A stretch of DNA of 64,000 bases, from NCBI RefSeq assembly GCF_988242995.1, contig NZ_OZ547043.1; one strand, written 5' to 3'. Positions 1-52,011 of this stretch are shown piece after piece. The notes under the pieces are model-generated. The model was not told the origin of the DNA. It worked only from the letters and a program-made list of their open reading frames with translations, and made no database searches. Every line of letters begins with the position of its first letter. The stretch's first letter is position 1. The translations under genes and the position numbers were made by a program.

Positions 1-60
1 AATCGCCATGAATGCTATAGGATAAATGATAAAAATAATGAATTATTACAAAGGGAACAT

Positions 61-89
61 AAGAGAATCAGGGCGAAAATCGCCCTGAT
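61..89 (-). terminator. Putative rho-independent terminator downstream of ugd
   Basis: Inverted repeat atcagggcg (67-75) / cgccctgat (81-89) with 5-nt loop, 10 bp past the ugd stop; followed on the minus strand by TCTCTT. Confidence 0.45.
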
Positions 90-98
90 AACAAGATG

Positions 99-1274
<1,176 letters not shown>

Positions 1275-1455
1275 TCAGAATTAACTTAACTGTGAATCAT
1301 GATGTTTTTAGCATCCTGATAAGAGTTAAAAGTTTTAACGCTACGTCGATAGCTGGTCAACGCAACGAAAAACAATTCAGATTTTCTTTATAAGAATAGC
1401 TGATATTTATTAAGTTAATATTAAGCAGTGAAATTTAGTCTATAAGATAATTGGC

Positions 1456-1487
1456 AAAAAAAAGCCCGATGCAATATACGCCGGGCT
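1456..1487 (-). terminator. Putative rho-independent terminator downstream of gnd
   Basis: Stem agcccg (1463-1468) / cgggct (1482-1487); the plus-strand A8 run at 1456-1463 is a U-tract on the minus strand after the hairpin, just past the gnd stop. Confidence 0.5.
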
Positions 1488-1513
1488 TCAATTTTATTGT
1501 TGGTTAAATCAGA

Positions 1514-2920
1514 TTAATCCAGCCATTCAGTATGGAACACACCTTCTTTATCAGTACGCTTATAGGTATGCGCACCAAAGTAGTCACGTTGAGCCTGGAT
1601 CAGGTTAGCCGGCAATACGGCTGCACGGTAGCTGTCGTAGTAGGCAACGGCAGCAGAGAAGGTCGGTACCGGGATGCCATTTTGAACCGCGTAAGCAACA
1701 ACATCACGTAACGCCTGCTGATACTCATCAGCGATATTCTTGAAGTACGGATCCAGCAGCAGGTTAGCAATACCCGCATTCTTCGCGTAGGCATCGGTGA
1801 TCTTCTGCAGGAACTGCGCACGAATAATGCAGCCGGCACGGAAAATCTTCGCGATCTCACCGTAATTCAGATCCCAGTGGTACTCGTCAGACGCTGCGCG
1901 CAACTGAGAGAAACCTTGTGCATAGGAAACAATTTTACCGAGATACAGCGCACGGCGTACTTTCTCAATAAACTCAACTTTGTCACCCGCAGGGTGCGCT
2001 TTCGGACCAGTCAGGACCTTAGAGGCAGCAACGCGCTGATCTTTCAGTGAGGAGATGTAACGCGCAAAGACCGATTCAGTAATCAGCGACAGCGGTTCAC
2101 CGAGATCCAAAGAGCTCTGGCTGGTCCACTTACCGGTACCTTTGTTAGCCGCTTCGTCCAGAATGACATCAACAAGGTATTTACCCTCTTCATCTTTTTT
2201 GGTGAAGATGTCTTTTGTGATGTCAATCAGGTAGCTGCTCAACTCACCGTTGTTCCACTCAGTAAAGGTACTGGCCAGCTCTTCATTAGAGAGGTTCAGG
2301 CCGCCTTTCAGCAGAGAATAGGCCTCAGCGATAAGTTGCATGTCACCATATTCAATACCGTTGTGAACCATCTTCACATAGTGGCCTGCACCATCCGCAC
2401 CGATGTAAGTCACGCAAGGCTCGCCATCTTCAGCAACTGCGGCGATCTTAGTCAAAATCGGCGCAACCAGCTCGTAGGCTTCTTTCTGACCGCCCGGCAT
2501 GATAGAAGGCCCTTTCAGCGCCCCCTCTTCACCACCGGAAACGCCGGTGCCAATGAAGTTGAAACCTTCAGCGGAAAGTTCGCGGTTACGACGAATGGTG
2601 TCCTGGAAGAAAGTATTGCCACCATCAATAATGATGTCGCCTTTATCCAGATACGGTTTCAGAGAATCAATGGCTGCATCGGTACCCGCGCCTGCTTTCA
2701 CCATTAACAGGATACGACGAGGCGTTTCGAGGGATTCAACGAACTCTTTCACCGTGTAGTAAGGCACCAGTTTCTTGCCCGGGTTCTCGGCAATCACTTC
2801 TTCGGTCTTTTCACGGGAGCGGTTGAACACGGAGACGGTATAACCACGGCTCTCGATGTTGAGCGCCAGGTTGCGCCCCATCACTGCCATGCCGACGACG
2901 CCGATCTGTTGCTTGGACAT
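1514..2920 (-). CDS. gnd: 6-phosphogluconate dehydrogenase, decarboxylating
   Basis: 468-aa ORF; [30 protein letters not shown] is the conserved Gnd N-terminus; correct length. Confidence 0.95.
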
Positions 2921-3100
2921 TACATACTCCTGTCAGGTGTGGTCACCGCGCGACGTATGCGCGGCTTGAATGTATAGCAAATGTTAACCTATGTCCGTTT
3001 GAAAAAAAACGAAAATCAATTTAACGAATGTCGGAAATAGGTAACCAGTTGCTGTTTCATAACATATGCTGCGCTCCGATAAATACTTATTCTCTGTTAT

Positions 3101-3967
3101 TCACTTTCCAATTAATTGAAATAAATATTGACCATACTGTGTTTTCTCCATAATCCTGGCCTCAGTCAGGACCTGCTCCGCAGTCAGCCATTTATTGCGC
3201 AAAGCTATTTCTTCTAAGCAAGCAACTTTATATCCTTGACGCTTTTCGATAGTATGAACAAATTGAGAAGCTTCAATAAGGCTATCATGTGTTCCCGTAT
3301 CCAACCAAGCGAACCCCCTTCCCAAGAGTTCTACATTAAGCATATCCCGCTCAAGATACATTTTATTTATTGAAGTGATTTCAAGCTCACCACGAGGAGA
3401 TGGTTTAACTTGCTTTGCAAAATCCACCACCTGATTATCATAGAAATAGAGTCCAGTTATGGCCCAATTAGATTTTGGTGTTTGTGGCTTCTCTTCGACA
3501 GAGAGCACCTTAAATGATTCGTCAAATTCTACAATGCCAAATCGTTCAGGATCCATAACCTGATAGCCAAAAACTGTAGCTCCTCTTTTTCTGGAAGCCA
3601 CCTGTTCCAGTTTGCGACCGAAACTTTGACCGAAGAAAATATTATCCCCTAAAACCAGGGCACATTCATCACCAGCGATGAACTCTTCACCAATAATAAA
3701 AGCCTGCGCCAACCCATCAGGACTTGGTTGAATAGCATATTGAAGGTTAATTCCAAACCGGGATCCGTCTCCTAGCAGGCGTTTATACGATGATAAGTCC
3801 TCGGGAGTAGAAATAAGAAGTATATCTTTTATCCCTGCCAGCATTAATACTGAAATAGGGTAATATACCATTGGCTTATCATAAATAGGTAGGAGCTGTT
3901 TTGATACCCCTCGAGTAATCGGATAAAGTCGGGTACCAGAACCTCCCGCTAATATAATTCCTTTCAT
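3101..3967 (-). CDS. rmlA: Glucose-1-phosphate thymidylyltransferase
   Basis: 288 aa; [46 protein letters not shown] is the RmlA/RfbA nucleotidyltransferase signature. Confidence 0.85.
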
Positions 3968-4111
3968 TGCTTACCTTCTCTATATAATCTTCAAATATTA
4001 TCGCATTAACTTTTAAGTAAATTTTAAAAATGCAGTGCAATAAACATTCAGTTTAAATAAGCTTGACATTAGAAATATCTCCAGCTTATTTACTTGTATT
4101 AAATGTCACAT

Positions 4112-4642
4112 TTAATCTAATTTTTTTAGGTATGTCGCTGGAGTGCCGCCTACTAATTCCTTTTCACCGACATCTTTTAGAACTACAGAATTTGCTGCAA
4201 CTATAGCTCCATTGTTAATAACAATAGGTCCCAAAATAACAGATCCAGTGGCCAATATAACATCGTTGCCAATAACAGGACGAAGTTCCTTGTTATATTT
4301 CATATCAAGTGTTTTTGCACCAATAGTGACATTTTGATATATAGTGCAGTTTTCACCTATACGCGCCGCACCGATAACTATGCCAAAGGTATGTGGTATG
4401 AAAAGTCCACCTTTAATCTCACATTCAGTTGCGATCTCAATGTTAAAAATGAGGACGTTTAAAAGTGAACAACATTTTGATATTCTTCTGAATCCTTTTT
4501 CTTTTAAAGAATAGGATGTCCTATATATTACATTGGGAATCAAACGAGGGCTAAAAATTCTAAAATAGTCTTTAAATTTAAAAGCAGATTCATTCCCAAT
4601 CAATTCTTTATATCTTTGAATATCTTGTTGTATATTTTTCAT
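4112..4642 (-). CDS. Hexapeptide-repeat O-acetyltransferase (CysE/LacA/WbbJ-like)
   Basis: 176 aa; left-handed beta-helix hexapeptide repeats (IGAARIGENCTIYQNVTIGAK, IGNDVILATGSVILGPIVINNGAIVAANSVV). Confidence 0.7.
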   Translation of the reverse strand: MKNIQQDIQRYKELIGNESAFKFKDYFRIFSPRLIPNVIYRTSYSLKEKGFRRISKCCSLLNVLIFNIEIATECEIKGGLFIPHTFGIVIGAARIGENCTIYQNVTIGAKTLDMKYNKELRPVIGNDVILATGSVILGPIVINNGAIVAANSVVLKDVGEKELVGGTPATYLKKLD

Positions 4643-5699
4643 TTTTTATTCCTGCGTATCCTGCTAAAAACACCAGATATAGCCAAAACATAGGGAAAAG
4701 GAAGGTTAGTTTAAGGCAGGGGAGCAGGCATAATAACATCAATCTAAGTGAGAATCGTGAATATTTTAGGAACAATACCAGCCATGATACACTAAGGATA
4801 CTGCCTAACCAAAAGCCAAAAACGATGAAATTACTTCCGAATAACGTCATATCAAAAAGAGACTGAAAATAGTCTGGTGCATTGTCATAATACCCAACCA
4901 TACCGTGGCCAATATTAAAAACAAGAGGGCTATCAAAGAATGATTTCATCAACTCAAGTTTATATGATGTGCTACCATCACTACCAGATGAAATATAAGA
5001 CATACGCCACATAATGTTTTGATATATTATCGGAGAAACCAGTACTAACGATATTAACCCGGTTGCGATCCACTTTAGTGTCAATCTACAGGTAAGAATA
5101 AAAAATAACATAACGCAGATAACAGAGAAAGTCGAACCGGATAACACCATACACATTAATGCTATATAACTTAGTAATGAGTTATTATTAGCTACAATAT
5201 ACCTCATCACTAATAATGTGACCATATGTATAGAGAAAATACTCGGTTCGGCAAATACTCCTGTTGCTCTGTAATCGAAACCGTCATAACTGCTACGGTG
5301 TGGAGGACCTAACAAGAACTTCCCATAATCGATATCCACATTAATGATTTTGAAAGCTAAATACTGCAACAGGAAAGTAAAAATGTGAAACTTGATGCAA
5401 AAATCGATCACCTTAAGCCAGTCACAGCTTTTAATTCTTTTTACACAATAGCTATAGATTGATGGTACTGTCAATGCATAAAAGCAGCATACCAAAGTAA
5501 AAATAAATATTTTATCCACTACGCCAAAGAATACATGAAAAATAAGCGATGTGAACGATACCAGAATAAATATCAACCCTTGCGATGAAACCTTACATTT
5601 ACCCTGTATAAACACCAGAAAAAAAACGCAAAACTGAATAATAAAAAAAACCGGACTAAAAATGAAAAGAGTACCAAAAAGAAAATATATATTAGCCAT
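4608..5699 (-). CDS. wzy: O-antigen polymerase
   Basis: 363-aa very hydrophobic, AT-rich, multi-spanning membrane protein with a large internal loop, located in an O-antigen cluster; no close sequence recognised, as is typical for Wzy. Confidence 0.55.
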   Translation of the reverse strand: MANIYFLFGTLFIFSPVFFIIQFCVFFLVFIQGKCKVSSQGLIFILVSFTSLIFHVFFGVVDKIFIFTLVCCFYALTVPSIYSYCVKRIKSCDWLKVIDFCIKFHIFTFLLQYLAFKIINVDIDYGKFLLGPPHRSSYDGFDYRATGVFAEPSIFSIHMVTLLVMRYIVANNNSLLSYIALMCMVLSGSTFSVICVMLFFILTCRLTLKWIATGLISLVLVSPIIYQNIMWRMSYISSGSDGSTSYKLELMKSFFDSPLVFNIGHGMVGYYDNAPDYFQSLFDMTLFGSNFIVFGFWLGSILSVSWLVLFLKYSRFSLRLMLLCLLPCLKLTFLFPMFWLYLVFLAGYAGIKNEKYTTRYSKI

Positions 5700-6669
5700 T
5701 TCTTTCCCTTTTTGAATAACCCTCTATATAATACATAGCCAAGACTAACTTGTAAAATATTGCTCTGATTTTAAATTTATTCCTATTGTCTAACTTATTA
5801 AGAACAACCCTTACAAATTTATTAAGTTTAATACTATTAGCGCAAGACAAAGCTACTCTAAGCACAGTTGACTTCATACTACCTTTCCGCTCAGCCTGGG
5901 GAAATAGCAATTTATCTACAATTTCAGGATGTTTCTTAACCAAAAGCGGTACTGAGTACCTTGCATAAGGAATCATTCTTTCACATGCCCTATCGAGGGT
6001 AGGGGTGTCGTTATCGTAGAGTAAAGCATCGCTACAAAAGAAAAACGGAACAGAGCTTAAACGAAGCCGCGCCCCAAATTCTTCATCCTCACAACCATAA
6101 TGCCGGAATGATTCATCGAACCCTTTCTGTGCTTCAAACTCGGATTTGCTAATCAGGAAAGCATCGCTTGCAAAGTAGCGATACTCAATTTTAACAGTTC
6201 CTTTATATCTATTCCCCAAATATCGGGAGTCAAAGTAGTGTAGGTAATTGCTGTCGCGGGTTAAATCTTGCCGACATCTGACATTAGCCCTTGCTACAAA
6301 AGGCTTCTCGCAGGACAAAATCATTGAATGCAGGCTATCAAGACAACCTTGCTGGAGCAAATTGTCTATGTCGACAAAAAATAACCATTCATTGCTTGCT
6401 GATTTCGCAGCTCTATTTCGAGAAAAGGCGCGACCTTCATTTATTTCATTACGTAAGAACACTAACCGCCATTCGCGCTCATTAAATTTTTCAGAAAAGG
6501 CAATAGTTGTGTCTTCCAAATTCACCTCAGAACCGTCATCGATGATGATAAGTTCAATATTCTTTAGTATATTCTTTTGTCCATGAGTATTAGCGAGCAG
6601 AGCTGAGATGAAAGTTTCTACTTTTGATGAGCTACCGAGAACAGGGCTAATAATGCTAATCATTTGCAC
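5692..6669 (-). CDS. Family 2 glycosyltransferase
   Basis: 325 aa; N-terminal ISIISPVLGSS...ELIIIDDGS matches the GT-A nucleotide-sugar binding and DxD region. Confidence 0.75.
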   Translation of the reverse strand: MQMISIISPVLGSSSKVETFISALLANTHGQKNILKNIELIIIDDGSEVNLEDTTIAFSEKFNEREWRLVFLRNEINEGRAFSRNRAAKSASNEWLFFVDIDNLLQQGCLDSLHSMILSCEKPFVARANVRCRQDLTRDSNYLHYFDSRYLGNRYKGTVKIEYRYFASDAFLISKSEFEAQKGFDESFRHYGCEDEEFGARLRLSSVPFFFCSDALLYDNDTPTLDRACERMIPYARYSVPLLVKKHPEIVDKLLFPQAERKGSMKSTVLRVALSCANSIKLNKFVRVVLNKLDNRNKFKIRAIFYKLVLAMYYIEGYSKRERNG

Positions 6670-7918
6670 GTTCCATTAAATATTTTTTAGTTACAGTTAA
6701 ATACCAATAGATTGAAACTAATATTGAAAAGAAAAGAGAAATATATAATGCAATAAAGATGCTTGGTATCGGCGCAGTAATAGCAGAGACTTTCAATGCG
6801 CTATAGATGCTCAGACATAATAAAAATACAAGACACCATTTAATGGTGTAATAGTAGTAACTCTTTGATGCAAGGTTAGCTGCGTTGATCAAATTATCGA
6901 CAGCAAAAAATGGCAACAAAAAGACCAGAATATTATAATAATTTGCCGATGTGACATAGTCATGGCCGAAAACAAATGTAAAGATATATGGTGTAAATGG
7001 CTTTAACGAAAATGAGAATAACGAAAAAGCAGTAAACATTATTATGGATAAGACAATAAGATTTCTGTTGAAAATTTTCCACTTCTTGTTTTTGTATAAA
7101 AGGATGGGGGCCAAAACCTGTATCAATATTAAGGTTACTGAAGCTGTATTCTCATTAATCTGTGATGCAGCACTATATATACCATAATCAACTGGTGAAA
7201 TGTTACCTTTCAGTAAGAATCTGTCAATTTTCATAAATAATGCATAGGCTACAACCCCTCCCCAGATGAAAAAACTGCGTTTTAACAGGAAGCCTATATC
7301 ATTTAGTCTAACAAGACTTATTCTGGGGAACTTACAAATTGAACAACAGTACATGACTATCGCAACAAAAATGCCCTCCAGTACCCATGGCAATGCAAGG
7401 AACTTGATATCGAAATTTATCACTATAAATAAGTAATATAGTGTTAGTATCCTGATAATGCAGCCAAAGATCTGGATGATACCTGAGAGGTATAATTTCC
7501 CTTCAGATTGCCATTTTGCAAAGCCTACCATCAATGGCTCTCGTGCCAAGAGAGTAACGGACGAAAATAGCAAGTAATACCTTACAATCTCACTTTCAGC
7601 TGTAATTGCGAGGATTACACTGACAGTAGCGACTAATGATGATACAGATAATCTTGCAAAAAAAATTGTATTACAATAAATCAATTTCTTGCGTAATGAA
7701 TAGCGCGATAACTGAGGGACAACTGATTCTGACCCGCACATCCAAGTTAGTGACATTAAAATATTTGAAAAAGTAAATGCATATTGCCAAATGCCAAACT
7801 GCTCAATTGGAAGCGCTTTTGAGATAAGATGGTTAGCATAAATAGCACTAATAATCTGTACAAATCGCTCAAACAACAGGACAAGCAATCCCGCAATAAT
7901 TGATTTATTCACGAACAC
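6656..7918 (-). CDS. wzx: O-antigen flippase
   Basis: 420-aa polytopic membrane protein (about 12 hydrophobic segments) of the polysaccharide-transporter type, located in the O-antigen cluster. Confidence 0.7.
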   Translation of the reverse strand: MFVNKSIIAGLLVLLFERFVQIISAIYANHLISKALPIEQFGIWQYAFTFSNILMSLTWMCGSESVVPQLSRYSLRKKLIYCNTIFFARLSVSSLVATVSVILAITAESEIVRYYLLFSSVTLLAREPLMVGFAKWQSEGKLYLSGIIQIFGCIIRILTLYYLFIVINFDIKFLALPWVLEGIFVAIVMYCCSICKFPRISLVRLNDIGFLLKRSFFIWGGVVAYALFMKIDRFLLKGNISPVDYGIYSAASQINENTASVTLILIQVLAPILLYKNKKWKIFNRNLIVLSIIMFTAFSLFSFSLKPFTPYIFTFVFGHDYVTSANYYNILVFLLPFFAVDNLINAANLASKSYYYYTIKWCLVFLLCLSIYSALKVSAITAPIPSIFIALYISLFFSILVSIYWYLTVTKKYLMERAND

Positions 7919-8903
7919 CTTCCGGTGAGATTATTTTTTTCACCCATTGCTGTAAAGAATATTGTTCTCTATTTTTGTAATTAACATTCGGTGCGTTAAT
8001 AAAATTCTCAGGTACTATGACCTGATGTCTTTTTACTACGCAGATCATATTAGGGTCATAAAAATCGTACTTTTTTATGTCTTCATTCGTGGTAATAATT
8101 TTTTTATTTAACCCGATGCATTCTATTGTTCGCATTGTCAGACCGCGCTGCCTTGGATGATGAATATCGATGATAATTTCAGAGCACTTCATCATTTCAA
8201 CAACTTCAGATTGTGATAATGGTTCAAATTCTACGTCTGTATTTATTTTTTTTCCGCTTAATAAATTCTTCAGTTTAAAAATAATTTCATTCTGAAAATA
8301 AAAGAATGTATAAGCATTAATGTCTTTAATATTTCTTACTTCAGCAGTAATGCAATTGACCAAATCAACGCGATCTGAATGAGCTGTACCGATAAAACAA
8401 AGATCGTATTTTAGCGAATGCTCATGCTTATTGTCAAAACGCGGCGAATAAAACAGCGGAAGAAATGTTACTCCCCATTTTTCAGCATCATCACGTTCAA
8501 AGGTGAAAACCGAATCAAACTGATTTATTATTCTTTTAACTTTGGGTTTGTTATTGACCGAATCCCACAAATACATAATGAATTTACAGTGTTCATTTTT
8601 TACTTTAACGGTTTTTTTTATGGCCTGTAAAATTTCATGATCAATTGCTTCAGGATTTAAAATAAATACATTATCGATTTTTTTGTTGACAATTTGCCGT
8701 AGTAATTTTTTATAATAACTTGAGTTATACTTTTTAATCAAAATACTACAACCTAACCTTAGCAATGATTTATAAATAGCATTATTGCTCGGCCGCTCAT
8801 CCCAATAGATAACGTCATTAGTTAATTCTAATTCTTTGACTATTTCTTTTTCATAATTAAAAAACTTGGGAGAAATAAACAATACTGTATTTTTGTACCC
8901 CAT
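7905..8903 (-). CDS. Hypothetical protein, candidate glycosyltransferase of unrecognised family
   Basis: 332-aa soluble ORF, AT-rich, overlaps wzx start by 14 nt (operonic). No motif I can assign; context suggests the second sugar transferase of the O-unit. Confidence 0.45.
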   Translation of the reverse strand: MGYKNTVLFISPKFFNYEKEIVKELELTNDVIYWDERPSNNAIYKSLLRLGCSILIKKYNSSYYKKLLRQIVNKKIDNVFILNPEAIDHEILQAIKKTVKVKNEHCKFIMYLWDSVNNKPKVKRIINQFDSVFTFERDDAEKWGVTFLPLFYSPRFDNKHEHSLKYDLCFIGTAHSDRVDLVNCITAEVRNIKDINAYTFFYFQNEIIFKLKNLLSGKKINTDVEFEPLSQSEVVEMMKCSEIIIDIHHPRQRGLTMRTIECIGLNKKIITTNEDIKKYDFYDPNMICVVKRHQVIVPENFINAPNVNYKNREQYSLQQWVKKIISPEGVRE

Positions 8904-8904
8904 T

Positions 8905-9720
8905 TTATCTTCCCTGAGATTTTTTGAATTCTTTTATCATATCCACTAAATCATTCAATACATTTTTATAATGATGTGGGACTATTGAGTTAGTTTTTTG
9001 CATCGTGATAACAGGAAATGTTTCGCATGTATCATTCTTGTGCCACTGTATATTACAACCTGTTTCAGATATTAAAATGTCAGCGATGGATTTTGCTGAA
9101 ACATTATATCCAGATGCAATGTTATAAATATCTCCGGGTGAAGTTATAGATTCTGCTAGCTTATACATGACGGCAACCACATCATCTACCGATACATAAT
9201 CCTTCTCGTAGTCAGAGCTAACATACATATCGACATGATTGTTATTGATTGCATTTTTTATTATTTGCGGAAGGAATAACGGGCTATTTAGTGCGAGTCC
9301 ATAAACATTTGATGGTCGGACGACCACAACGTTCTTTTTACTTCTTAGACATAACTCTTCAGCAACCAATTTTGTCAAATTGAAAAGCTTGCGACCATCA
9401 TTGTGACAAATTTTTAGATCTGAATTTTCTGCAGAATCTCTGGAGTTCAAATATACACGAGTGGAAGAAATGTAGACTAATTTCTGGAAATTAGCTTGTG
9501 TAAGTATTACTTTTAGCTTATTGACATTTGCATCCACAACATTATAGGCATCACTTTTGCAATCGCCATAGCCTGCGCAATAAAAGACGGTACCAAGGTC
9601 AATTTCTTTGTTATAAAGATAGTCTCTGTCAGGGCAGAAACATTCTTTATTCATTGATTCTAAAAATGTTACCATATGTGAACCAATGAAACCTGAACTA
9701 CCAACGACTGTATACTTCAT
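8905..9720 (-). CDS. NAD(P)-dependent sugar epimerase/reductase (SDR family), candidate dTDP-4-keto-6-deoxyhexose 4-reductase
   Basis: 271 aa; N-terminal Rossmann motif VVGSSGFIGSHMV; lies between the rmlC-like gene and the orphan ORF; does not resemble canonical RmlD. Confidence 0.55.
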   Translation of the reverse strand: MKYTVVGSSGFIGSHMVTFLESMNKECFCPDRDYLYNKEIDLGTVFYCAGYGDCKSDAYNVVDANVNKLKVILTQANFQKLVYISSTRVYLNSRDSAENSDLKICHNDGRKLFNLTKLVAEELCLRSKKNVVVVRPSNVYGLALNSPLFLPQIIKNAINNNHVDMYVSSDYEKDYVSVDDVVAVMYKLAESITSPGDIYNIASGYNVSAKSIADILISETGCNIQWHKNDTCETFPVITMQKTNSIVPHHYKNVLNDLVDMIKEFKKSQGR

Positions 9721-9782
9721 AATACTATAGCCTTTTGCTCTATGTATTAATAATGACAGGAAGCTAATTTAAACTGTTATGC

Positions 9783-10325
9783 TTATAAGCTAGCTTCTTT
9801 AAATTCTGAAAAACTAATTAACGCGTTGTCTTTAGATGACATAATTGGCATGTCTATCGGCCATTGTATATTCAGTTCTTTGTCATTCCAGATTATCCCC
9901 CCTTCATCGGTAGGATCATAGAAGTCTGTGCATTTGTAATGGAAATCCGCATACTCACTTAATACACAAAAACCATGTGCAAATCCAGGTGGGATATAGA
10001 TTTGATTATTTTTATCCCCAGAAAGTATAACACCTACATGCTTTCCAAAAGACGAAGATCCAGGTCTTAAATCAACAGCCACATCAAAAACTTCTCCACT
10101 GATGACACTTACTAATTTACCTTGAGGATTATTTTTTTGAAAATGTAAACCTCGAAGCACATTTCTTGCTGAGCGTGATCGATTATCTTGTACAAATGCC
10201 TCAGTTATTCCTATGTCGTGATATTTCTTCTGATGCCATGCTTCCAAAAAGAAACCACGAGAGTCACCAAAGACTTTTGGCTCAATGATTACACAACCAG
10301 CAAGTGGAGTCTCAATTACCTTCAT
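9783..10325 (-). CDS. rmlC: dTDP-4-dehydrorhamnose 3,5-epimerase family protein
   Basis: 180 aa; cupin-fold RmlC motifs EPKVFGDSRGFF, NVLRGLHFQ, GFAHGF. Confidence 0.8.
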   Translation of the reverse strand: MKVIETPLAGCVIIEPKVFGDSRGFFLEAWHQKKYHDIGITEAFVQDNRSRSARNVLRGLHFQKNNPQGKLVSVISGEVFDVAVDLRPGSSSFGKHVGVILSGDKNNQIYIPPGFAHGFCVLSEYADFHYKCTDFYDPTDEGGIIWNDKELNIQWPIDMPIMSSKDNALISFSEFKEASL

Positions 10326-10396
10326 AATTATAAACCTTGTATTATATTTTTTAAATTTGCTAATTTTTGATACAATTTAGCTACCTTTATCAGTTA

Positions 10397-11479
10397 CTAA
10401 CGCATCTTGTAGTTCTGCTCAATCCAGGTTTGGTACGCCCCACTTTTGATATTTTCAACCCATGAGGTGTTTGCCAGATACCATTCAACCGTTTTGCGAA
10501 TCCCACTTTCGAACGTCTCTTGCGGTTTCCAACCGAGCTCACGGCTGATTTTATCCGCATCGATCGCGTATCGACGGTCATGGCCTGGACGATCGGCAAC
10601 ATAGGTGATTTGTTCACGGTATGACACTGCTTTAGGTACGATCTCATCCAGCAGGTCGCAGATGGTATGTACAACATCGAGATTTTTCTTCTCGTTATGG
10701 CCACCGATGTTGTAGGTCTCACCAGGGATTCCTTTCGTCACCACGGTATATAACGCACGGGCATGGTCTTCAACATAGAGCCAGTCGCGAATCTGATCGC
10801 CTTTACCATAAATGGGTAACGATTTCCCTTCGAGAGCATTGAGAATAACCAAGGGAATCAACTTTTCAGGGAAATGGTATGGGCCATAGTTATTCGAACA
10901 GTTGGTCACCATTGTTGGAAGACCGTATGTACGCAGCCAGGCACGAACGAGATGGTCGCTGGAGGCTTTTGAAGCCGAATAAGGACTACTCGGCGCATAG
11001 GCGGTTTGTTCCGTGAAGAGAGGAAGAATACTCCCCTGCGCAACCTCATCCGGATGCGGTAAATCCCCATAAACTTCATCAGTAGAGATGTGATGGAAGC
11101 GGAATGTCGCCTTTCGCGCACTATCCAGTGAGGACCAGTATTGACGGGCTGTTTCTAAAAGAACATAAGTACCCACAATATTCGTTTCAATAAATGCAGC
11201 AGGGCCTGTAATTGAACGGTCAACATGGCTTTCAGCAGCCAGGTGCATCACTGCATCCGGCTGATGCTGAGAAAAAATTCGCGCCATTGCAGCAGCATCG
11301 CAAATATCCGCATGTTCAAAAACATAGCGTTCAGAATCAGAAACATCAGCAAGTGATTCCAGGTTTCCGGCGTACGTTAATTTATCGACATTAACAACAC
11401 TATCCTGCGTATTATTTATAATGTGACGAACTACAGCAGAACCAATAAATCCTGCGCCACCAGTAACAAGTATCTTCAC
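10397..11479 (-). CDS. rmlB: dTDP-glucose 4,6-dehydratase
   Basis: 360 aa; [43 protein letters not shown] matches RmlB/RfbB almost residue-for-residue. Confidence 0.92.
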
Positions 11480-11553
11480 TTATTTATTCCATATAACTTC
11501 AGAGCATGCTGTGAAATAAGCGGCTCTTAGGTTGATTAATAGAGGTGTTAATG

Positions 11554-11592
11554 CACGCTACCGCCCCTGGCTTTACAGCTACCAGAGCACTA
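11554..11592 (-). promoter_or_regulatory. JUMPstart element with ops site (RfaH-dependent antitermination) upstream of the O-antigen operon
   Basis: Minus-strand reading is cagtgctctggtagctgtaaagccaggggcGGCGGTAGCGTG; the ops core GGCGGTAGCGTG is the reverse complement of 11554-11565. Confidence 0.8.
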
Positions 11593-11850
11593 CATGCATG
11601 TCTACGATGTGACGAGCGTTACCCACTCGCGCTAAACCCGAAAAATTCAAACGCTAATTGTCTTACCAATCCGCTCTGGAAACAAGGAAAATCCTGGAAA
11701 ACTTTGACTAAAATCCTATTGCTAACTCGTTGTTATTCTGATTGTTTATATAAAACAACGGCAGGAATATTCGCAACAAATTACTTTCGCCACGAATCTT
11801 CACTGTCGTTATAATTTTCTTATCAACCGTTACATCCGGTCAGATTTTCA

Positions 11851-12744
11851 TTATTCGCTTAACAGCTTCTCAATCCCTTTACGGAACTTCGCCCCTTCTT
11901 TGAGGTTGCGTAGTCCATACTTCACAAATGCCTGCATATAACCCATTTTTTTACCGCAGTCGTAACTGTCCCCAGTCATCAGCATGGCATCAACGGACTG
12001 TTTTTTCGCCAGCTCGGCAATAGCATCAGTCAGCTGAATACGTCCCCATGCACCAGGCTGAGTACGTTCCAGTTCCGGCCAAATATCGGCAGAAAGCACA
12101 TAGCGACCAACGGCCATGATGTCTGAGTCCAGCGTCTGCGGCTGATCCGGTTTTTCGATAAATTCGACGATGCGGCTGACTTTACCTTCACGATCCAGTG
12201 GTTCTTTGGTCTGAATGACGGAGTATTCAGAGAGGTCACCCGGCATACGTTTTGCCAGCACCTGGCTGCGGCCCGTTTCATTGAAGCGCGCAATCATGGC
12301 AGCAAGGTTGTAGCGCAGCGGGTCGGCACTGGCGTCGTCGATCACAACGTCCGGCAATACCACAACAAATGGGTTGTCACCAATGGCGGGTCGTGCACAC
12401 AAAATGGAGTGGCCTAAACCTAAAGGTTCGCCCTGACGCACGTTCATAATGGTCACGCCCGGCGGACAGATGGACTGTACTTCCGCCAGCAGCTGACGCT
12501 TCACGCGCAGTTCAAGGAGAGATTCTAATTCATAAGAGGTGTCGAAGTGGTTTTCGACCGCGTTTTTGGACGCGTGAGTTACCAGGAGGATTTCTTTGAT
12601 CCCTGCAGCCACAATCTCGTCAACAATGTACTGAATCATTGGCTTGTCGACGATCGGTAGCATCTCTTTGGGAATCGCCTTAGTAGCAGGCAACATATGC
12701 ATCCCTAGACCCGCTACAGGAATAACTGCTTTTAAATTCGTCAT
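11851..12744 (-). CDS. galF: UTP-glucose-1-phosphate uridylyltransferase-like regulatory subunit
   Basis: ORF track gives 11851-12756; conserved GalF N-terminus [44 protein letters not shown] starts at the internal Met (12744). Confidence 0.9.
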
Positions 12745-12918
12745 TATTTCATCCACCTGTAAAATGGTTGCTGAATTATAGCTTGTTCGATTTTTTTCGC
12801 CAGCATCAATTACCCTGAATTGATTACTGAATTACTTGTGATGTTACGCCGCTTCGTTGTGGATTGCAGTAGCATTGTTCCTAAGTATGGCTCCATTTTT
12901 CCAGGAATGGTCGCAAAT

Positions 12919-14313
12919 CTACTCCCTCCGTTCCGGCAATCTAAAGTTAATCTTTTCCACATTAACAATATGGTGATTTATCCTGTCGATATCGACGGAG
13001 CTTTGCCCTCTTTCATTCACCGCATGAACATTTGCAAGAGATAGCAGTGTTTCTTTTTTCGCCATAAAGACGCCGCGAACGTCTTTGCGCATGTCAAAGT
13101 TCATGCTCAATGCTGGTCCAACAGAGGATTTCTGCATCACCTTGATATTACGCATAAAAAGGTGTTGCGGTTTATTGTGTAGCTCAAGCGAGGCACGCTT
13201 CATCTCAATGTTAGTCAGTGCCACAAAGGAGACAGCATTCCCGGCGGAGATTTGGATGCCGCGCAATTTATAAGCAAGGTGAGTGTTATCCAGTTGAATA
13301 TTATTCACTCGGAAATTTTGCGGTATCGAGAGATATTTGCCTTTAATTACCCCATAGCCAATTAACATCCCGGCGCTATTAATCATTTCAATATTATCAA
13401 TCACGAATTTGTCACAACCGTAAATAGCGACTGTGGCGTTATCAATGCCTGCTTTCTTACTGAAATCCGGCGTGATATTGCGGGCTTTGATATTACGAAT
13501 AACAAAATGTTTACCATTTTCAACATGTATCAACTGCCGACAATCCGATCCCGTGATATTCGCCACGACAAAGTTTTTCACTGCCTGATCTTCCGGGTAA
13601 TTATTATCGTAAGTGCTTCCCGCAAGGCCTATGCCAATGCCCCAGTTGATTTTGCCGTTAGTACAGTTGATGCGCTCGATGACATGGTCGGAGATCAAAA
13701 TATCACTGTCGTTAATTGCCACGTTCCATTCAATGGCGTCGCCCTGTAAGTCGCTGAACTTACAGTTGGTGATGTTGGCACCGATTATCTGGTTATGAAA
13801 TCCCTGGCGTAAGATGGCGTAATTAGCGTGGCTAACGGTCAGGTTATCGATGGTCAGGTTGCGCATGACCCGTTTGTTTTTGCCGCCGATATAAATCTGC
13901 GTTACCGGACCAAAGCCGCTCATCGCCAGCCCTTTGATGGTGCAGTCAGAGCCGCGCACATCCAGGGTGATGTTATGCATACTGCCGCCCTCCTCCCCTG
14001 TCACCTGGCTGCCGTCCTGTAAGATAAATCGCCCTCTGCCGTTGCCGCGCAGGCTTCCAAGGATGTGTAACGTTTTACCTGCAGGAATGAAGATGCCGGT
14101 GTTGATATTGTCGCAAACCAATCCGGCAGGCACGACGACCGTTTGCCCTTCGCTGAAGGCTTGTTTAAATGAGGCGATCCAGTCGTGAGGGTTGTAGTCG
14201 TTAATGTTAACGCTTTGTCGGGCGGGAAGTGCGCGAGCGAAAGGGGTATGGAGGAAGGCAAGGGCCGAGCTTGCCGTCAGGAAGGTGCGTCGGGAGAGTT
14301 TTTTAAATGGCAT
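12919..14313 (-). CDS. wcaM: Colanic acid biosynthesis protein WcaM
   Basis: 464 aa; [28 protein letters not shown] is an RR-type signal peptide; position and length fit WcaM. Confidence 0.9.
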
Positions 14314-16882: not shown

Positions 16883-17069
16883 GCCTGATGCGACGCTGAC
16901 GCGTCTTATCAGGCCTACAAGACCCGAGCACAGAACCGTAGGCCGGATAAGGCGTTCACGCCGCATCCGGCATTCAGTGCCTGATGCGACGCTGACGCGT
17001 CTTATCAGGCCTACAGGTCCCGAGCACAGAACCGTAGGATGGATAAGGCGTTTTACGCCGCATCCGGCA
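16883..17069. repeat. BIME: four alternating REP palindromes
   Basis: gcctgatgcgacgctgacgcgtcttatcaggcctaca occurs twice, alternating with inverted gtaggccggataaggcgttcacgccgcatccggca-type copies, between wcaK and wzxC. Confidence 0.85.
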
Positions 17070-21477: not shown

Positions 21478-21567
21478 ATCGTTACCCTTTTTCAGGCAAT
21501 AGTTGGTCCTGACCGAAGCGGCCAATTTTATTTTTGTCGTTATTTACACCGCGGTTTCGCATTCATT

Positions 21568-24332: not shown

Positions 24333-24808
24333 AATCCGGGTACTCCGGCACGCTTCTCAGCGAGAAAATAGGCGCGGCTGTTAGCGTGAACATCGTTACT
24401 GGCGAGCAGCGCGTCCGGCGTCAGCCAGCGGTAATCGTCATGCTGCTCATCCGGCAGTATCAGATCTTCTTCAGCGACTCTGAAGCGAAAACCGAGCACC
24501 ACATAGTGAGTGGTGAAATCCGTGCCGGAGAAGTTATCGTCATAAAAGTGCTGCCAGACACCGTAAAACTGGCCTGCTGTTATCGGCAGACGCAGCCCCA
24601 GTTCCGCCATCGTCAGCCGCTCGAATGCGGCTTCCAGCGTTTCGTCTTTCTGCACGCGCCCTCCCGGCACAAACCAGTAACCCTGCGCCGGGCGGTTGGT
24701 TCTTTTGCCAAGCAGAAACTCGCCGCGACTGTTCTCGACAATAAAGTCGAGAGAGACAAGCGGGGTGGAGCGCACTACCGTGGCAAAGTCTTCCTGACGT
24801 AAAAACAT
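24329..24808 (-). CDS. gmm: GDP-mannose mannosyl hydrolase (Nudix)
   Basis: 159-160 aa; [24 protein letters not shown] start; Nudix box region present; overlaps wcaI stop. Confidence 0.9.
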
Positions 24809-24810
24809 CA

Positions 24811-25776
24811 TTACCCCCGAAAGCGGTCTTGATTCTCAAGGAACCACTGGTAAGTGCTGGCAAGCCCCGCTTCCAGTGAGATTTCGTGATACCAGCCAAG
24901 CTGATGCAGGCGCGTCACATCCAGCAGTTTGCGCGGCGTACCATCCGGTTTGCTGGCATCAAAAACCACCCGACCTTTGTAACCCACCACTTTGGCGATG
25001 GTTTGCGCCAGCTCGCGGATAGTGCAGTCAACGCCCGTGCCGACGTTAATGTGCGACAGCATCGGCTGGGTGTTCTCCAGCCAGACTTCGTGCGCCAGCT
25101 CCATGACATGAATGCTCGCCGCCACCATATCATCGACGTGCAGGAATTCACGCATCGGTGTACCGCTGCCCCATACCACCACGTCCGGTGCATTCTGTGC
25201 CGTCGCCTCGTGGAAGCGACGCAGCAATGCAGGGATCACATGCGAATTACTCGGGTGGAAGTTGTCATGCGGGCCATACAGGTTGGTCGGCATGACTGAG
25301 CGGTAATCGCGTCCGTACTGGCGGTTGTATGATTCGCACAGTTTGATCCCGGCGATTTTGGCAATGGCGTAAGGCTCGTTGGTCGGCTCCAGCGTGCCCT
25401 GCAATAACTCGCTTTCTGCCATCGGCTGTTTTGCCAGTTTCGGGTAGATACAGGACGATCCAAGAAACAGCAGTTTGTTCACGTCGTTCTGATGCGCGGC
25501 GTGAATGATGTTGCTCTCAATCATCATGTTCTGGTAGATGAAATCCGCCGGATAGGTGTTGTTGGCAACAATGCCGCCCACTTTCGCCGCCGCCAGATAG
25601 ACCTGGTCAATGCGTTCGCTGGCAAAGAAATCATGCACCGCGCGGCTGTCCAGCAGGTTCAGCTCGTCGCGGGTGCGTAATACCAGTTCCACATCACCGC
25701 GCTGTTCGAGCTGCCGCCTGATGGCAGAACCGACCATCCCACGATGGCCAGCGATAAAAATGCGTTGTTTACTCAT
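24811..25776 (-). CDS. fcl: GDP-L-fucose synthase
   Basis: 321 aa; [33 protein letters not shown] Rossmann N-terminus. Confidence 0.92.
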
Positions 25777-36093: not shown

Positions 36094-36132
36094 CACGCTA
36101 CCGCCCCTGGCTTTTTAGCTACCAATACACTG
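36094..36132 (-). promoter_or_regulatory. JUMPstart element with ops site in the colanic acid operon leader
   Basis: Minus-strand reading is cagtgtattggtagctaaaaagccaggggcGGCGGTAGCGTG; near-identical to the O-antigen JUMPstart at 11554-11592. Confidence 0.8.
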
Positions 36133-38156: not shown

Positions 38157-38162
38157 TGGCAT

Positions 38163-38205
38163 GTAGGCCTGATAAGACGCGTAAAGCGTCGCATCAGGCC
38201 TACAG
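38163..38205. repeat. REP palindrome
   Basis: tgtaggcctgataagacgcgtaaagcgtcgcatcaggcctaca, a perfect inverted repeat between the convergent yegH and asmA. Confidence 0.85.
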
Positions 38206-38223
38206 GACAGGTCACCTGGTAAC

Positions 38224-40077
38224 CTACATCTTCTCCAGCAACTTCTTCACATCTTTGCCATTGCGGGAATCTTTATTCCGCTCGGCCCAGTCGTTAAGAC
38301 GGCGTTTTGCTTCATCCTGTAGATGTTTACGCAGTAACTGATCCACTTGCAGGCTGTAATTAAGTTGCTGCCAGTTGCCATAAACCCGCAGCGGTACTGG
38401 CGTTTCTTTGAGGAAATCAATCAGTTTGCTTTCCCCGTTCCAGCCCCCCACGACCCGAATATCAAACTGGGTGTCACAGGTTTGATCTGCCAGATTCAAC
38501 ATGCCTTCCCCTGTCAGCACCAGCACAGGCGATTGACCTTGCATGTCGTTTAACGTCACGACGCCATCCTTCAACGTCAAATCGGTGGTAAAGCGGTCAA
38601 GACGCGTCACGTTATCGAAGTTTTCAGCGGCCTTCACATCACCACCATTACGTTCTACCGCTTGCTGAATCATCTGCTGGAAGTTCATCCCTTCCATGCG
38701 TGTATCAGTCATTTCGACATGTGCCTGCCCTTGCCAGTTGTGGCGGAATGCGTCGGCATCTATGTCAGCACCGGAGAAATCACCAGCCAGTGACATCTTT
38801 CCGGTCAACGAAATCGGATAGTTAAACGCCTTCAGAATGGTGCCAATCTCAACGTTTTCCAGCCGTGGCTGGAAGTTTATCCGCGGATTTATTGATGTCG
38901 CGTCCAACGTGCCCGGCAGTGAAACCTGTCCACCGTTAAGTTTGCCCTGCAGTTGAGTAATTTCCAGCAAACCCGACTTGTTGGTCATTTGCGTGGCAAC
39001 ATCTGTAAAATTCATTCCGCGCCAGCGCACGTTACTGGCCTGCAACAAAATATCAGCCGTAAAGCCTTGCAGTCCCTGATAGGCCGGTTCATCAATACGC
39101 GAAGAAATGACCGGGCGCGGCAACGTTGATTGGCTCTGCCCTTGCTGCGCGGCACCGTTCTCACCGTTCGCTGTTTCATTAAGGGGGATGAGGTTGTCAA
39201 GATTCAGTTGCGGGAATTGCAGTCTCAGCTGCCATTCCGGTTTCTCTGTCAACGTGACCTGTGCTTGCCCGCTCAGCGTACTGTCATTGGCGGTCAAACT
39301 AATTTGGTTAAATGAAAGGCGTTTATGTGACTCCTGCCACTGGACCTGGAAACTCCCCTGCCCCTGAATACCTTGTTTTGGTAAATCTGCACCCTGCAAC
39401 TGCCAGTTAACTTGTTCAATAGCCGCCGTTAAATCATGCGGATAATCAGAAGCATCTACCGTACCGTTAAGGGATATCGTGAGATCGCGCTGATCGCGAT
39501 TAACCCGCCCGGAGAACTCAAATGAACCACGATGTTGGGGATCTTGTTCCATTTGCAGGCGAATATTGCGGATTGTCACCTGCTCGTCATCTTCATGCTG
39601 GAACACCAGCACGCTGTCCGCCACCTTAAGACTGGATATATCAAACGACCATCCGCGATCGTCTGACAGATCCGGCAAGGTATTGTCGCGTGGTGCAACC
39701 GGGGCATCTTCACTGCGTACCGCTTCCGTCTGCGGCGTCAGTTGGATCACTGCCCCTTTTAGCATCACCTGCTTAACGCTCAGTTGATGACTCAGCAGTG
39801 GTAAAAGCGCCACGTCCAGACGCATGTTGTCTGCGCGAACCAGTGGCTGGCTCGCGCCCTGGGCAGTGAGAGACATTCGCCCGGAGAGGATACTAAGCTG
39901 CGGCCAGACGTGCCAACGCAGTGGCCCGTCGAGCTGCAATTGATAACCGCTACGTGCAGCAACTTGCTTGACCATATAGTCGCGGAAATCATTCGGATTC
40001 ACCAGCAACACTAACGCAGATAACCCGGCCACCAGCACGACCAGGAGTATCATCAGCGTCGTCAGAAATCGTCTCAT
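38224..40077 (-). CDS. asmA: Outer-membrane assembly protein AsmA
   Basis: 617 aa; MRRFLTTLMILLVVLVAGLSALVLLVNPNDFRDYMVKQV N-terminal anchor. Confidence 0.9.
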   Translation of the reverse strand: MRRFLTTLMILLVVLVAGLSALVLLVNPNDFRDYMVKQVAARSGYQLQLDGPLRWHVWPQLSILSGRMSLTAQGASQPLVRADNMRLDVALLPLLSHQLSVKQVMLKGAVIQLTPQTEAVRSEDAPVAPRDNTLPDLSDDRGWSFDISSLKVADSVLVFQHEDDEQVTIRNIRLQMEQDPQHRGSFEFSGRVNRDQRDLTISLNGTVDASDYPHDLTAAIEQVNWQLQGADLPKQGIQGQGSFQVQWQESHKRLSFNQISLTANDSTLSGQAQVTLTEKPEWQLRLQFPQLNLDNLIPLNETANGENGAAQQGQSQSTLPRPVISSRIDEPAYQGLQGFTADILLQASNVRWRGMNFTDVATQMTNKSGLLEITQLQGKLNGGQVSLPGTLDATSINPRINFQPRLENVEIGTILKAFNYPISLTGKMSLAGDFSGADIDADAFRHNWQGQAHVEMTDTRMEGMNFQQMIQQAVERNGGDVKAAENFDNVTRLDRFTTDLTLKDGVVTLNDMQGQSPVLVLTGEGMLNLADQTCDTQFDIRVVGGWNGESKLIDFLKETPVPLRVYGNWQQLNYSLQVDQLLRKHLQDEAKRRLNDWAERNKDSRNGKDVKKLLEKM

Positions 40078-50977: not shown

Positions 50978-51125
50978 TGAGGGTTAGGGAGAGGTTTCCC
51001 CCTCCCCCTGGTGTTCTTAGTAAGCCTGGAAGCTAATCACTAAGAGTATCACCAGTATGATGACGTGCTTCATCATAACCCTTTCCTTATTAAAAGCCCT
51101 CTTCTCCGGGAGAGGGTTTCCCGTT
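50978..51125 (+). ncRNA. sibA: Sib antitoxin sRNA, unit 1 (SibA-like)
   Basis: Sigma70-like promoter TTGACA (50943-50948), 17-nt spacer, TAATTT (50966-50971); terminator stem ccctct (51097-51102) / agaggg (51111-51116) followed by TTTCCCGTTT; fully antisense to ibsA. Ends are approximate. Confidence 0.6.
51017..51076 (-). CDS. ibsA: Type I toxin Ibs, 19-aa hydrophobic peptide
   Basis: Minus-strand ORF atgatgaagcacgtcatcatactggtgatactcttagtgattagcttccaggcttactaa = MMKHVIILVILLVISFQAY; SD-like aaggaaaggg upstream; not in the ORF track (below 60 aa). Confidence 0.75.
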   Translation of the reverse strand: MMKHVIILVILLVISFQAY

Positions 51126-51312
51126 TCAGCGTCCCGCTGAAATCGTCGGCTTACCTCCTTTCGCCCTGAATGCAGTCTATCGCTAACGCGTGAACAAAAT
51201 AGTTTCCTCTGTGATTATTGCGTAACGACTCGCAAAGAATATTTGCTGGCAGGATCGCAGACTGCAAAGCCTGCGGATTGACAATCTTATCGTGAAGGCA
51301 TAATTTCAGGAG

Positions 51313-51454
51313 TGAGGGTAGAGCGGGGTTTCCCCCGCCCTGGTAGTCTTAGTAAGCGGGGAAGCTTATGACTAAGAGCACCACGATGATGAGTAGCTTC
51401 ATCATGACCCTTTCCTTATTTAAGGCCCCTTCCTCGGGAGGGGCTTTCCCGTTT
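51313..51454 (+). ncRNA. sibB: Sib antitoxin sRNA, unit 2 (SibB-like)
   Basis: TTGACA (51278-51283), 17-nt spacer, TAATTT (51301-51306); terminator stem gcccct (51425-51430) / aggggc (51439-51444) plus T-tract; antisense to ibsB. Ends are approximate. Confidence 0.6.
51349..51405 (-). CDS. ibsB: Type I toxin Ibs, 18-aa hydrophobic peptide
   Basis: Minus-strand ORF atgatgaagctactcatcatcgtggtgctcttagtcataagcttccccgcttactaa = MMKLLIIVVLLVISFPAY. Confidence 0.75.
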   Translation of the reverse strand: MMKLLIIVVLLVISFPAY

Positions 51455-51640
51455 CAGCGTCCCGCTGAAATCGTCGACTTACCTCCTTTCGCCCTGTATG
51501 CAGTCTATCGCTGACTTGCGGATAAAATAGTTTCCAGTGTGATTATTGCGTAACGTCTCGCAAAGAATATTTGCTGGCAGGATCGCAGACTGCAAAGCCT
51601 GCAGATTGACAATCTTATCGTGAAGGCATACTTTCAGGAG

Positions 51641-51782
51641 TGAGGGTAGAGCGGGGTTTCCCCCGCCCTGGTAGTCTTAGTATGCTGGGTAGCTAATCAC
51701 TAAGAGCACCACGATGATGATCCACTTCATCATGACCCTTTCCTTATTTAAGGCCCCTTCCTCGGGAGGGGCTTTCCCGTTT
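51641..51782 (+). ncRNA. Sib-family antitoxin sRNA, unit 3
   Basis: TTGACA (51606-51611), 17-nt spacer, TACTTT (51629-51634); terminator stem gcccct (51753-51758) / aggggc (51767-51772) plus T-tract; antisense to the third ibs ORF. Ends are approximate. Confidence 0.55.
51677..51733 (-). CDS. Ibs-family type I toxin, divergent third copy (18 aa)
   Basis: Minus-strand ORF atgatgaagtggatcatcatcgtggtgctcttagtgattagctacccagcatactaa = MMKWIIIVVLLVISYPAY; same ATGATGAAG start and SD context as units 1 and 2. Confidence 0.65.
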   Translation of the reverse strand: MMKWIIIVVLLVISYPAY

Positions 51783-51940
51783 CAGCGTCCCGCTGAAATC
51801 GTCGGCTTACCTCCTTTCGCCATGCAAGCAGTCTATCGCTAACGCGTAGATAAAATAGTTTCATGTGTTATTACTGGATGCGTGCTCGCAAATGTGCCCG
51901 TCATTCAGACGATTCCCGACAGTGTTTCATAATTCCTCCA

Positions 51941-51958
51941 TTTTTCTCCCTTATTGGC
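51941..51958 (+). promoter_or_regulatory. BaeR box in the mdtA promoter
   Basis: TTTTTCTCCCTTATTGGC matches the BaeR consensus TTTTTCTCCATDATTGGC at 16 of 18 positions, about 55 bp upstream of the mdtA start; preceded by a second TTCTCCA half-site. Confidence 0.6.
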
Positions 51959-52011
51959 TGGCTACACTAGTATCATTCCGCGAAACGTTTCAGGAAGAGA
52001 AACTCTTAACG

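Follow-up and report, generated by a model that had tools for sequence, protein, structure and literature searches.

The window analysed here, a stretch of 64,000 nucleotides (nt) of contig NZ_OZ547043.1 from NCBI RefSeq assembly GCF_988242995.1, harbours between the conserved genes gnd and galF an O-antigen biosynthesis operon of the kind found in Escherichia coli S88 (NC_011742.1). Nine open reading frames (ORFs), all on the minus strand, occupy positions 3101–11479 and are read from galF towards gnd in the order rmlB-rmlC-SDR-GT-wzx-GT2-wzy-OAcT-rmlA, where SDR stands for a short-chain dehydrogenase/reductase, GT and GT2 for two glycosyltransferases and OAcT for an O-acetyltransferase. The ORFs coincide with the RefSeq features of S88. 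The features of the locus are given below, with profile scores followed, where available, by the cut-off of the model.

1514–2920, minus strand: gnd (6-phosphogluconate dehydrogenase), the conserved flank at low coordinates; ORF and S88 RefSeq annotation, GC content 51.4%.
3101–3967, minus strand: rmlA/rfbA, glucose-1-phosphate thymidylyltransferase, last gene of the operon; TIGR01207, 504 bits (360.65), and Pfam NTP_transferase.
4112–4642, minus strand: hexapeptide-repeat (left-handed beta-helix) O-acetyltransferase, candidate 2-O-acetyltransferase of 6-deoxy-L-talose (6dTal); Pfam Hexapep, 36.5 bits.
4608–5699, minus strand: wzy, O-antigen polymerase of 363 amino acids (aa) with at least seven hydrophobic segments and a 109-residue loop; RefSeq name 'O-antigen polymerase Wzy'.
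5692–6663, minus strand: GT2 glycosyltransferase, candidate glucosyltransferase adding glucose (Glc) onto 6dTal; Pfam Glycos_transf_2, 49.1 bits, and Glyco_tranf_2_2, 45.5 bits; start as in RefSeq (6663), the open reading frame extending to 6669.
6656–7918, minus strand: wzx, O-unit flippase of 420 aa with about 11 hydrophobic segments; RefSeq name 'S88 variant O45 family O-antigen flippase'.
7905–8903, minus strand: WaaS/CpsH-family glycosyltransferase, candidate 6-deoxy-L-talosyltransferase; NCBIfam NF053598 over the full length, 295 bits (60).
8905–9720, minus strand: extended SDR of 271 aa; Pfam Epimerase, 70.1 bits.
9783–10325, minus strand: rmlC/rfbC, dTDP-4-dehydrorhamnose 3,5-epimerase; TIGR01221, 247.6 bits (155.75), and Pfam dTDP_sugar_isom, 232.9 bits.
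10397–11479, minus strand: rmlB/rfbB, dTDP-glucose 4,6-dehydratase, first gene of the operon, with a GTG start; NF007490, 773 bits (649).
11554–11592, minus strand: JUMPstart with ops, the predicted loading site of RfaH; Rfam RF01707, 56.8 bits (gathering score 35), E = 1.4e-10.
11851–12744, minus strand: galF, the conserved flank at high coordinates; TIGR01105, 685 bits (659.2), and RefSeq annotation.

The genes are tightly packed, with overlaps of 35 nt (OAcT/wzy), 8 nt (wzy/GT2 and GT2/wzx) and 14 nt (wzx/GT), and with only 1 nt separating the GT and SDR genes. The GC content amounts to 36.6% over positions 3101–11592 and to 34.4% in the core of the cluster (4112–9720), rmlB standing above the rest with 47%. 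An earlier annotation made from the letters alone, referred to below as the original prediction, had placed an AT-rich set of overlapping genes between gnd and galF, and the computed GC values, ORF positions and overlaps agree with it in every respect. It had also proposed a windowed comparison of GC content with the flanks, in which the values of the 8.5-kb stretches to the right of galF all lie between 50.4% and 56.5%. Consensus scans of positions 2800–12000 were uninformative for both promoters (35 sites against 35.6 expected from shuffled sequence) and terminators (9 sites against 6.0 ± 2.5 expected).

The leader named in the original prediction, JUMPstart/ops, is likewise present upstream of the first gene, where it is matched by the Rfam model and contains the ops octamer GGCGGTAG at 11558–11565 (minus strand) within an exact match to GGCGGTAGCGTG at 11554–11565. 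The element lies 75 nt upstream of the rmlB start, and its 5' end, 11592, is the very coordinate at which the original prediction had ended the island. Transcription would thus set out from the galF–rmlB intergenic region and pass the leader, where ops would recruit RfaH and so allow RNA polymerase to read the whole operon of ∼8.4 kb. A second JUMPstart/ops, to be expected for the colanic acid operon, is found at 36094–36132 (minus strand; RF01707, 57.3 bits) upstream of wza, with which that operon begins.

Over 8,901 nt the cluster shows 100% identity to that of S88 and of many other genomes, and the region can be regarded with high confidence as the E. coli operon that directs O-antigen biosynthesis of the O45(S88) type. 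The original prediction had left the serogroup unidentified and had taken an exact match of wzx and wzy to a known serogroup as the mark of a known cluster; both genes match those of S88 exactly, with wzx annotated as the S88 variant of O45, and the serogroup is therefore assignable. The cluster is in consequence one that has already been described, useful for typing and not a new system. Nor is it strain-specific, as had been proposed: among the 5,426 complete genomes of E. coli, 36 contain 80% or more of it, and these stem from human, poultry, swine, mink, goose, panda, bovine, river and wastewater samples, and lineage-restricted would be the better term. It was reportedly first described by Plainvert et al. 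in 2007 (J Bacteriol 189:8528) in S88 (O45:K1:H7, sequence type (ST) 95), a neonatal-meningitis strain. According to PMC5343136, which cites Plainvert 2007, O45 covers two distinct clusters, and strains with the S88 cluster type serologically as O45. The label O45S88 is also in use for the meningitis clone of ST95, for which a switch of the O-antigen cluster is assumed (PMC6337857). In two of the carriers, NR3736 (NZ_AP040205.1) and 51489 (NZ_CM135151.1), the cluster is matched in two pieces spread over 9,678 bp as against 8,901 bp, which from the sequence is an insertion of ∼0.78 kb, the size of a small insertion sequence; the annotated names suggest that wzy is interrupted in one of these strains and rfbB in the other, and both may be O-rough.

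The sugar-nucleotide genes rmlA, rmlB and rmlC are assigned on firm profile matches. The original prediction had named rmlB, rmlA, the SDR, the GT2 enzyme and the acetyltransferase, all of which are borne out by NCBIfam or Pfam matches, and had spoken of an rmlC-like gene; rmlC was the correct call and the reservation can be dropped, the score of the product being that of a genuine RmlC. RmlA, RmlB and RmlC would convert glucose-1-phosphate to dTDP-6-deoxy-L-lyxo-4-hexulose, which the 271-aa SDR, in place of RmlD, would reduce at C4 to dTDP-6-deoxy-L-talose. The enzyme that makes dTDP-6dTal from the RmlC product is known as Tll (Nakano 2000, cited in PMC7198725), and the SDR is most likely such a reductase, an assignment based on genomic context: homologues 49–58% identical to it are encoded by the gene that immediately follows rmlC in the clusters of O45, O66 and O109. 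6-Deoxy-L-talose has been reported in the E. coli O45, 'O45-related' and O66 antigens (Jann 1995, cited in PMC7685785 and PMC3989065). Among 5.8 billion proteins, the homologues of the SDR bear only generic names such as 'NAD-dependent epimerase/dehydratase', none being called Tll. A search of solved structures returned remote SDRs only (best MoeE5, 38.8 bits) and was uninformative on the stereochemistry at C4.

The same known cluster could also be read with the SDR as a non-orthologous replacement of RmlD, in which case the deoxyhexose would be O-acetyl-L-rhamnose. The product of RmlA, RmlB and RmlC is a precursor common to both sugars, the SDR has a match to Pfam RmlD_sub_bind, albeit one of 25.4 bits that stays under the cut-off of 27, and its partner glycosyltransferase belongs to the WaaS/CpsH family, the namesake WaaS being linked to rhamnose addition in the K-12 core. 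However, the NCBIfam search gave no hit of the SDR to TIGR01214, the equivalog model of rmlD, and its E. coli homologues reside in 6dTal serogroups (documented for O45 and O66, unverified for O109). In addition, the cross-reaction with O45, the unit of which contains 2-O-acetylated 6dTal (6dTal2Ac), is most simply accounted for by a common 6dTal2Ac. Rhamnose as the deoxyhexose is therefore considered quite improbable.

With 6-deoxy-L-talose as the preferred product, the remaining enzymes of the unit can be ordered tentatively. The ORF at 7905–8903, which the original prediction had left as an orphan, encodes a WaaS/CpsH-family glycosyltransferase; since its homologues in the O45, O66 and O109 clusters (36–47% identical) each co-occur with the SDR, its donor is probably 6dTal. 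The GT2 enzyme would act next by adding glucose, both its acceptor and its donor being predicted from context. The best NCBIfam models for the hexapeptide protein are EpsC/CysE-type and WcaB acetyltransferases, all under their cut-offs, and the putative substrate of this cytoplasmic enzyme is the talose residue, which it would O-acetylate. A related module, rmlC-SDR-WaaS-type GT-hexapeptide acetyltransferase, was observed in E. coli HCM-28C-2 (wzx annotated O109; locus 8318–11223) at 47–64% protein identity, which predicts an O109 antigen with O-acetylated 6-deoxytalose.

The serological designation raises the question of how the cluster relates to the classical reference O45 cluster, i.e. that found in Shiga toxin-producing strains of E. 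coli (STEC) O45:H2 and in the O45 type strain. A sensitive nucleotide search of the complete E. coli genomes with the specific core (5750–9720) returned the 36 carriers at ≥99%, and beyond them only matches of ∼71% limited to the SDR gene with or without the WaaS-type GT gene, in STEC O45:H2, in NCTC9066, whose wzx carries an O66 annotation, and in strains with wzx annotated O109. The order of genes in reference O45 (2011C-4251), rmlB ... rmlC-SDR-wzx-GT-wzy-OAcT-GT-rmlA, is nearly the same and follows the same logic, all specific proteins except Wzy have a distant counterpart there, and S88-cluster strains are serotyped as O45 (PMC5343136). Nevertheless, protein identities to the reference are high only for RmlB (86%; 86–89% when O66 is included), RmlA (81%) and RmlC (74%), and fall to 49% for the SDR, 43% for the acetyltransferase (51% to that of O109), 41% for the GT2 enzyme, 36% for the WaaS-type GT and 27% for the flippase Wzx (E = 3e-28), with no match for Wzy. 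The nucleotide alignment is confined to ∼200 nt of the SDR gene at 71%, the WaaS-like GT gene stands at a different position, and four genes between rmlB and rmlC of the reference (an SDR, an initiating transferase of the MraY type, a hypothetical protein and a polysaccharide biosynthesis protein) are absent here. The chance that the operon is the classical O45 cluster is thus close to nil. The wzx and wzy alleles of reference O45, tried as candidates against 2011C-4251 where the genes are annotated 'O45 family', were ruled out on the Wzx and Wzy comparisons just given.

Even with the threshold relaxed to E ≤ 10, neither Pfam nor NCBIfam has a profile that matches Wzx or Wzy, both of which are polytopic membrane proteins. 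Only five relatives of Wzy were found among the 5.8 billion proteins, named 'polymerase' and coming from E. coli, Proteus mirabilis (78% identical) and Buttiauxella (69%), and no similarity to the Wzy proteins of O45 and O66 is detectable. Such isolation might speak for a new O serogroup without assignment, as the original prediction had allowed, but the exact match to the sequenced and published S88 and to 35 further complete genomes, the dedicated RefSeq product name and the established label O45S88 (PMC5343136, PMC6337857) leave that idea a negligible chance. No ABC-transporter genes (wzm/wzt) are present in the cluster, the nine ORFs of which are all accounted for, none belonging to an ABC-transporter family in the NCBIfam and Pfam searches, and the O unit is predicted to be assembled by the Wzx/Wzy route: Wzx would flip the trisaccharide unit and Wzy polymerise it, while WzzB and WaaL, both encoded outside the cluster, would set the chain length and ligate the chain to the core.

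From the gene content the O unit is predicted to be the trisaccharide Glc-6dTal2Ac-GlcNAc, where GlcNAc is N-acetylglucosamine. A unit of three sugars fits because the cluster encodes two glycosyltransferases but none of the initiating kind; the unit would be started by WecA, the gene of which lies elsewhere, with GlcNAc phosphate on undecaprenyl phosphate. The same structure, Glc-6dTal2Ac-GlcNAc, was reportedly given by Jann et al. 1995 for the 'O45rel' antigen. The unit of reference O45 is FucNAc-6dTal2Ac-Glc (FucNAc, N-acetylfucosamine; PMC12093740; PMC7685785), and its MraY-type transferase (wbhQ) is proposed to start it with FucNAc (PMC7685785). Neither genes of the FucNAc pathway nor an initiating transferase of this family are present in the cluster of the window. 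The two units would accordingly differ solely in the initiating sugar, by which the O45 cross-reactivity would be explained. The short O unit with an O-acetylated, dTDP-derived 6-deoxyhexose that had been foreseen in the original prediction is supported by the gene set found: RmlA, RmlB and RmlC are accompanied by a 4-reductase distinct from RmlD, by the hexapeptide acetyltransferase and by a pair of glycosyltransferases. The contrast with K-12 drawn in the original prediction rests on what is established about the rfb region of that strain.

Several points weigh against this interpretation. Judged by sequence alone, the SDR, for which there is no close solved structure, could be a non-orthologous reductase that forms rhamnose. 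Wzy lacks the support of a family profile, its putative role being derived from topology, position, elimination and database names. The gene assignments and mutant phenotypes attributed to Plainvert 2007 enter the argument through citing papers, and the 'O45-related' structure attributed to Jann et al. 1995, together with its putative equation with the S88 antigen, is documented in none of the texts consulted, in which 'O45rel' occurs in reference lists only. Finally, a literature search for 6dTal in O109, which also has the SDR/GT/OAcT trio, found nothing.

The surroundings of the operon bear signs of recombination. The window does not differ from S88 by a single nucleotide over positions 1–13,407, which extend from ugd and gnd through the cluster and galF into the 3' part of wcaM (12919–14313, minus strand), and the identity ends within this last gene.

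13408–13951, no strand: recombination junction inside wcaM, with one mismatch at 13,408 and dense mismatches from 13,951 (27 per 500 nt).

To the right of this junction the identity to S88 is ∼95–97%, with ∼50 differences per kb from 13,951 and ∼97% identity over the remaining 50 kb; the host background of the window differs from that of S88. None of the 5,426 complete E. coli genomes reaches ≥99% over 14–34 kb, 39–64 kb or the mdtABCD block (best 98.3%), and an exact pattern of 120 nt had no match in the GTDB species representatives. The WcaM protein across the junction is a chimera, the exact sequence of which occurs in draft E. coli assemblies and Sequence Read Archive runs, always beside this cluster, and in no complete genome. 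Two of these assemblies, GCA_050090315.1 and GCA_014478255.1, agree with the window over 2919–24313 at 99.99% identity. The lineage of the window is thus real, is labelled E. coli and is absent from the set of complete genomes.

Other carriers diverge from the window on the right at still other points: XJ5.2 at ∼11,474, EC19 at ∼11,528, and AMSCJX02 and 2D at ∼11,776. On the left, all carriers compared are identical to the window down to position 1, the left-hand junction lying outside the window. As the cassette is identical and the right-hand junctions differ, the recombination events that brought it into the several backgrounds must have been independent, and the horizontally exchanged cassette of the original prediction is here seen in different backgrounds with different crossover points. 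XJ5.2 becomes near-identical to the window again at 14–16 kb; the right flank appears to be a mosaic, as is to be expected at a recombination hot spot.

The allele of galF and the 5' part of wcaM that the window shares with S88 is found at ≥99% in only 26 complete genomes, which are O45(S88) carriers, porcine enterotoxigenic E. coli such as UMNK88 and a few others. The possibility that this allele is native to ST95, with the lineage of the window as the recipient from an ST95 donor, was considered and rejected, for the 26 carriers include no familiar ST95 reference strain of another serogroup. S88 has therefore imported the galF/wcaM-5' allele as well.

Further differences from S88 were noted along the window. 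Between yegH and asmA, S88 carries a 745-bp module of a RelE/ParE-type toxin and a helix-turn-helix antitoxin (S88 locus 24560–25304), whereas the window has only 67 bp (38158–38224) at this site. Two stretches are more diverged from S88 than their surroundings and are probably further recombination patches: 51000–52000, where the Ibs/Sib toxin-antitoxin repeats lie upstream of mdtA (91.9% identical), and 61000–62000, a stretch in baeS (88.2%). Two RNA elements also score above the Rfam gathering threshold: naRNA4, an element of the REP (repetitive extragenic palindromic) type, at 16941–17011 (plus strand; 79.7 bits) in the wcaK–wzxC spacer, and the algC RNA motif at 21482–21531 (minus strand; 72.8 bits) in the cpsB–cpsG spacer.

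For typing purposes, the window can be assigned to O45 (S88 variant). This antigen is the mark of a highly virulent clone of neonatal meningitis and urosepsis, and it is reportedly important for the virulence of that clone. Because the window shows the antigen in another E. coli lineage, one that has been poorly sampled, the ST95 clone cannot be recognized from the serogroup by itself. Identical in sequence but with differing junctions, the cassette represents a textbook case in which homologous recombination in the galF/wca and gnd flanks has switched the O antigen, and current understanding is left unchanged by these results.

Relatives of the cluster were also found outside E. coli. The O-antigen locus of P. 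mirabilis situated between cpxA and secB (Logan contig of SRR22051871) shares with the operon a set of eight genes and their order, rmlC-SDR-GT-wzx-GT2-wzy-OAcT-rmlA, and the block (5359–12601 of the contig) is collinear with that of the window at 76.8% nucleotide identity over 7,266 nt, the proteins being 73–93% identical (93% in the case of RmlA). The two loci differ in their genomic site, in the lack of rmlB within the P. mirabilis cluster and in the additional glf and DUF707 genes upstream there. Proteus O-antigen clusters are usually without rmlB (PMC5560731), and in that survey of 60 Proteus serotypes a 6dTal cluster is not mentioned. Proteus is not obviously the source of the block, because with a GC content of 29% the block is even more AT-rich than its flanks. 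In Buttiauxella sp. A111 (GCA_014189855.1, locus 5977–11585) a core of six genes, SDR-GT-wzx-GT2-wzy-OAcT, lies between galF and gnd and encodes proteins of 60–69% identity (∼67% at the nucleotide level). It differs from the operon studied here in that rmlB and rmlA are located downstream of gnd and that no rmlC is present between galF and gnd. The copies of P. mirabilis and Buttiauxella are both much closer to the operon than is that of any other E. coli serogroup, and a fragment of an SDR from Morganella morganii is 89% identical.

These comparisons suggest that the cluster arose when an imported module of eight genes was fused to a resident rmlB, since the GC content of rmlB and the identity of its product to other E. 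coli RmlB proteins, both given above, set it apart. No description of the relationship to Proteus or of the multiple junctions was found in the literature searched, Plainvert 2007 itself lying outside that search. In a wider reading, the chances of which we consider evenly balanced, the cassette is a mobile 6-deoxytalose module common to bacterial families, as seen from its collinear counterparts in Proteus and Buttiauxella, which has been joined to an rmlB of the E. coli type and has recombined unchanged into at least four E. coli backgrounds with different right-hand crossovers, one of them being the lineage of the window.

Among characterized systems, the predicted pathway resembles the Tll pathway of Aggregatibacter actinomycetemcomitans serotype c (Nakano et al. 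2000) in the combination of RmlA, RmlB and RmlC with a 4-reductase other than RmlD. The reference O45 antigen, in turn, probably has the Glc-6dTal2Ac part of its unit in common with O45(S88).

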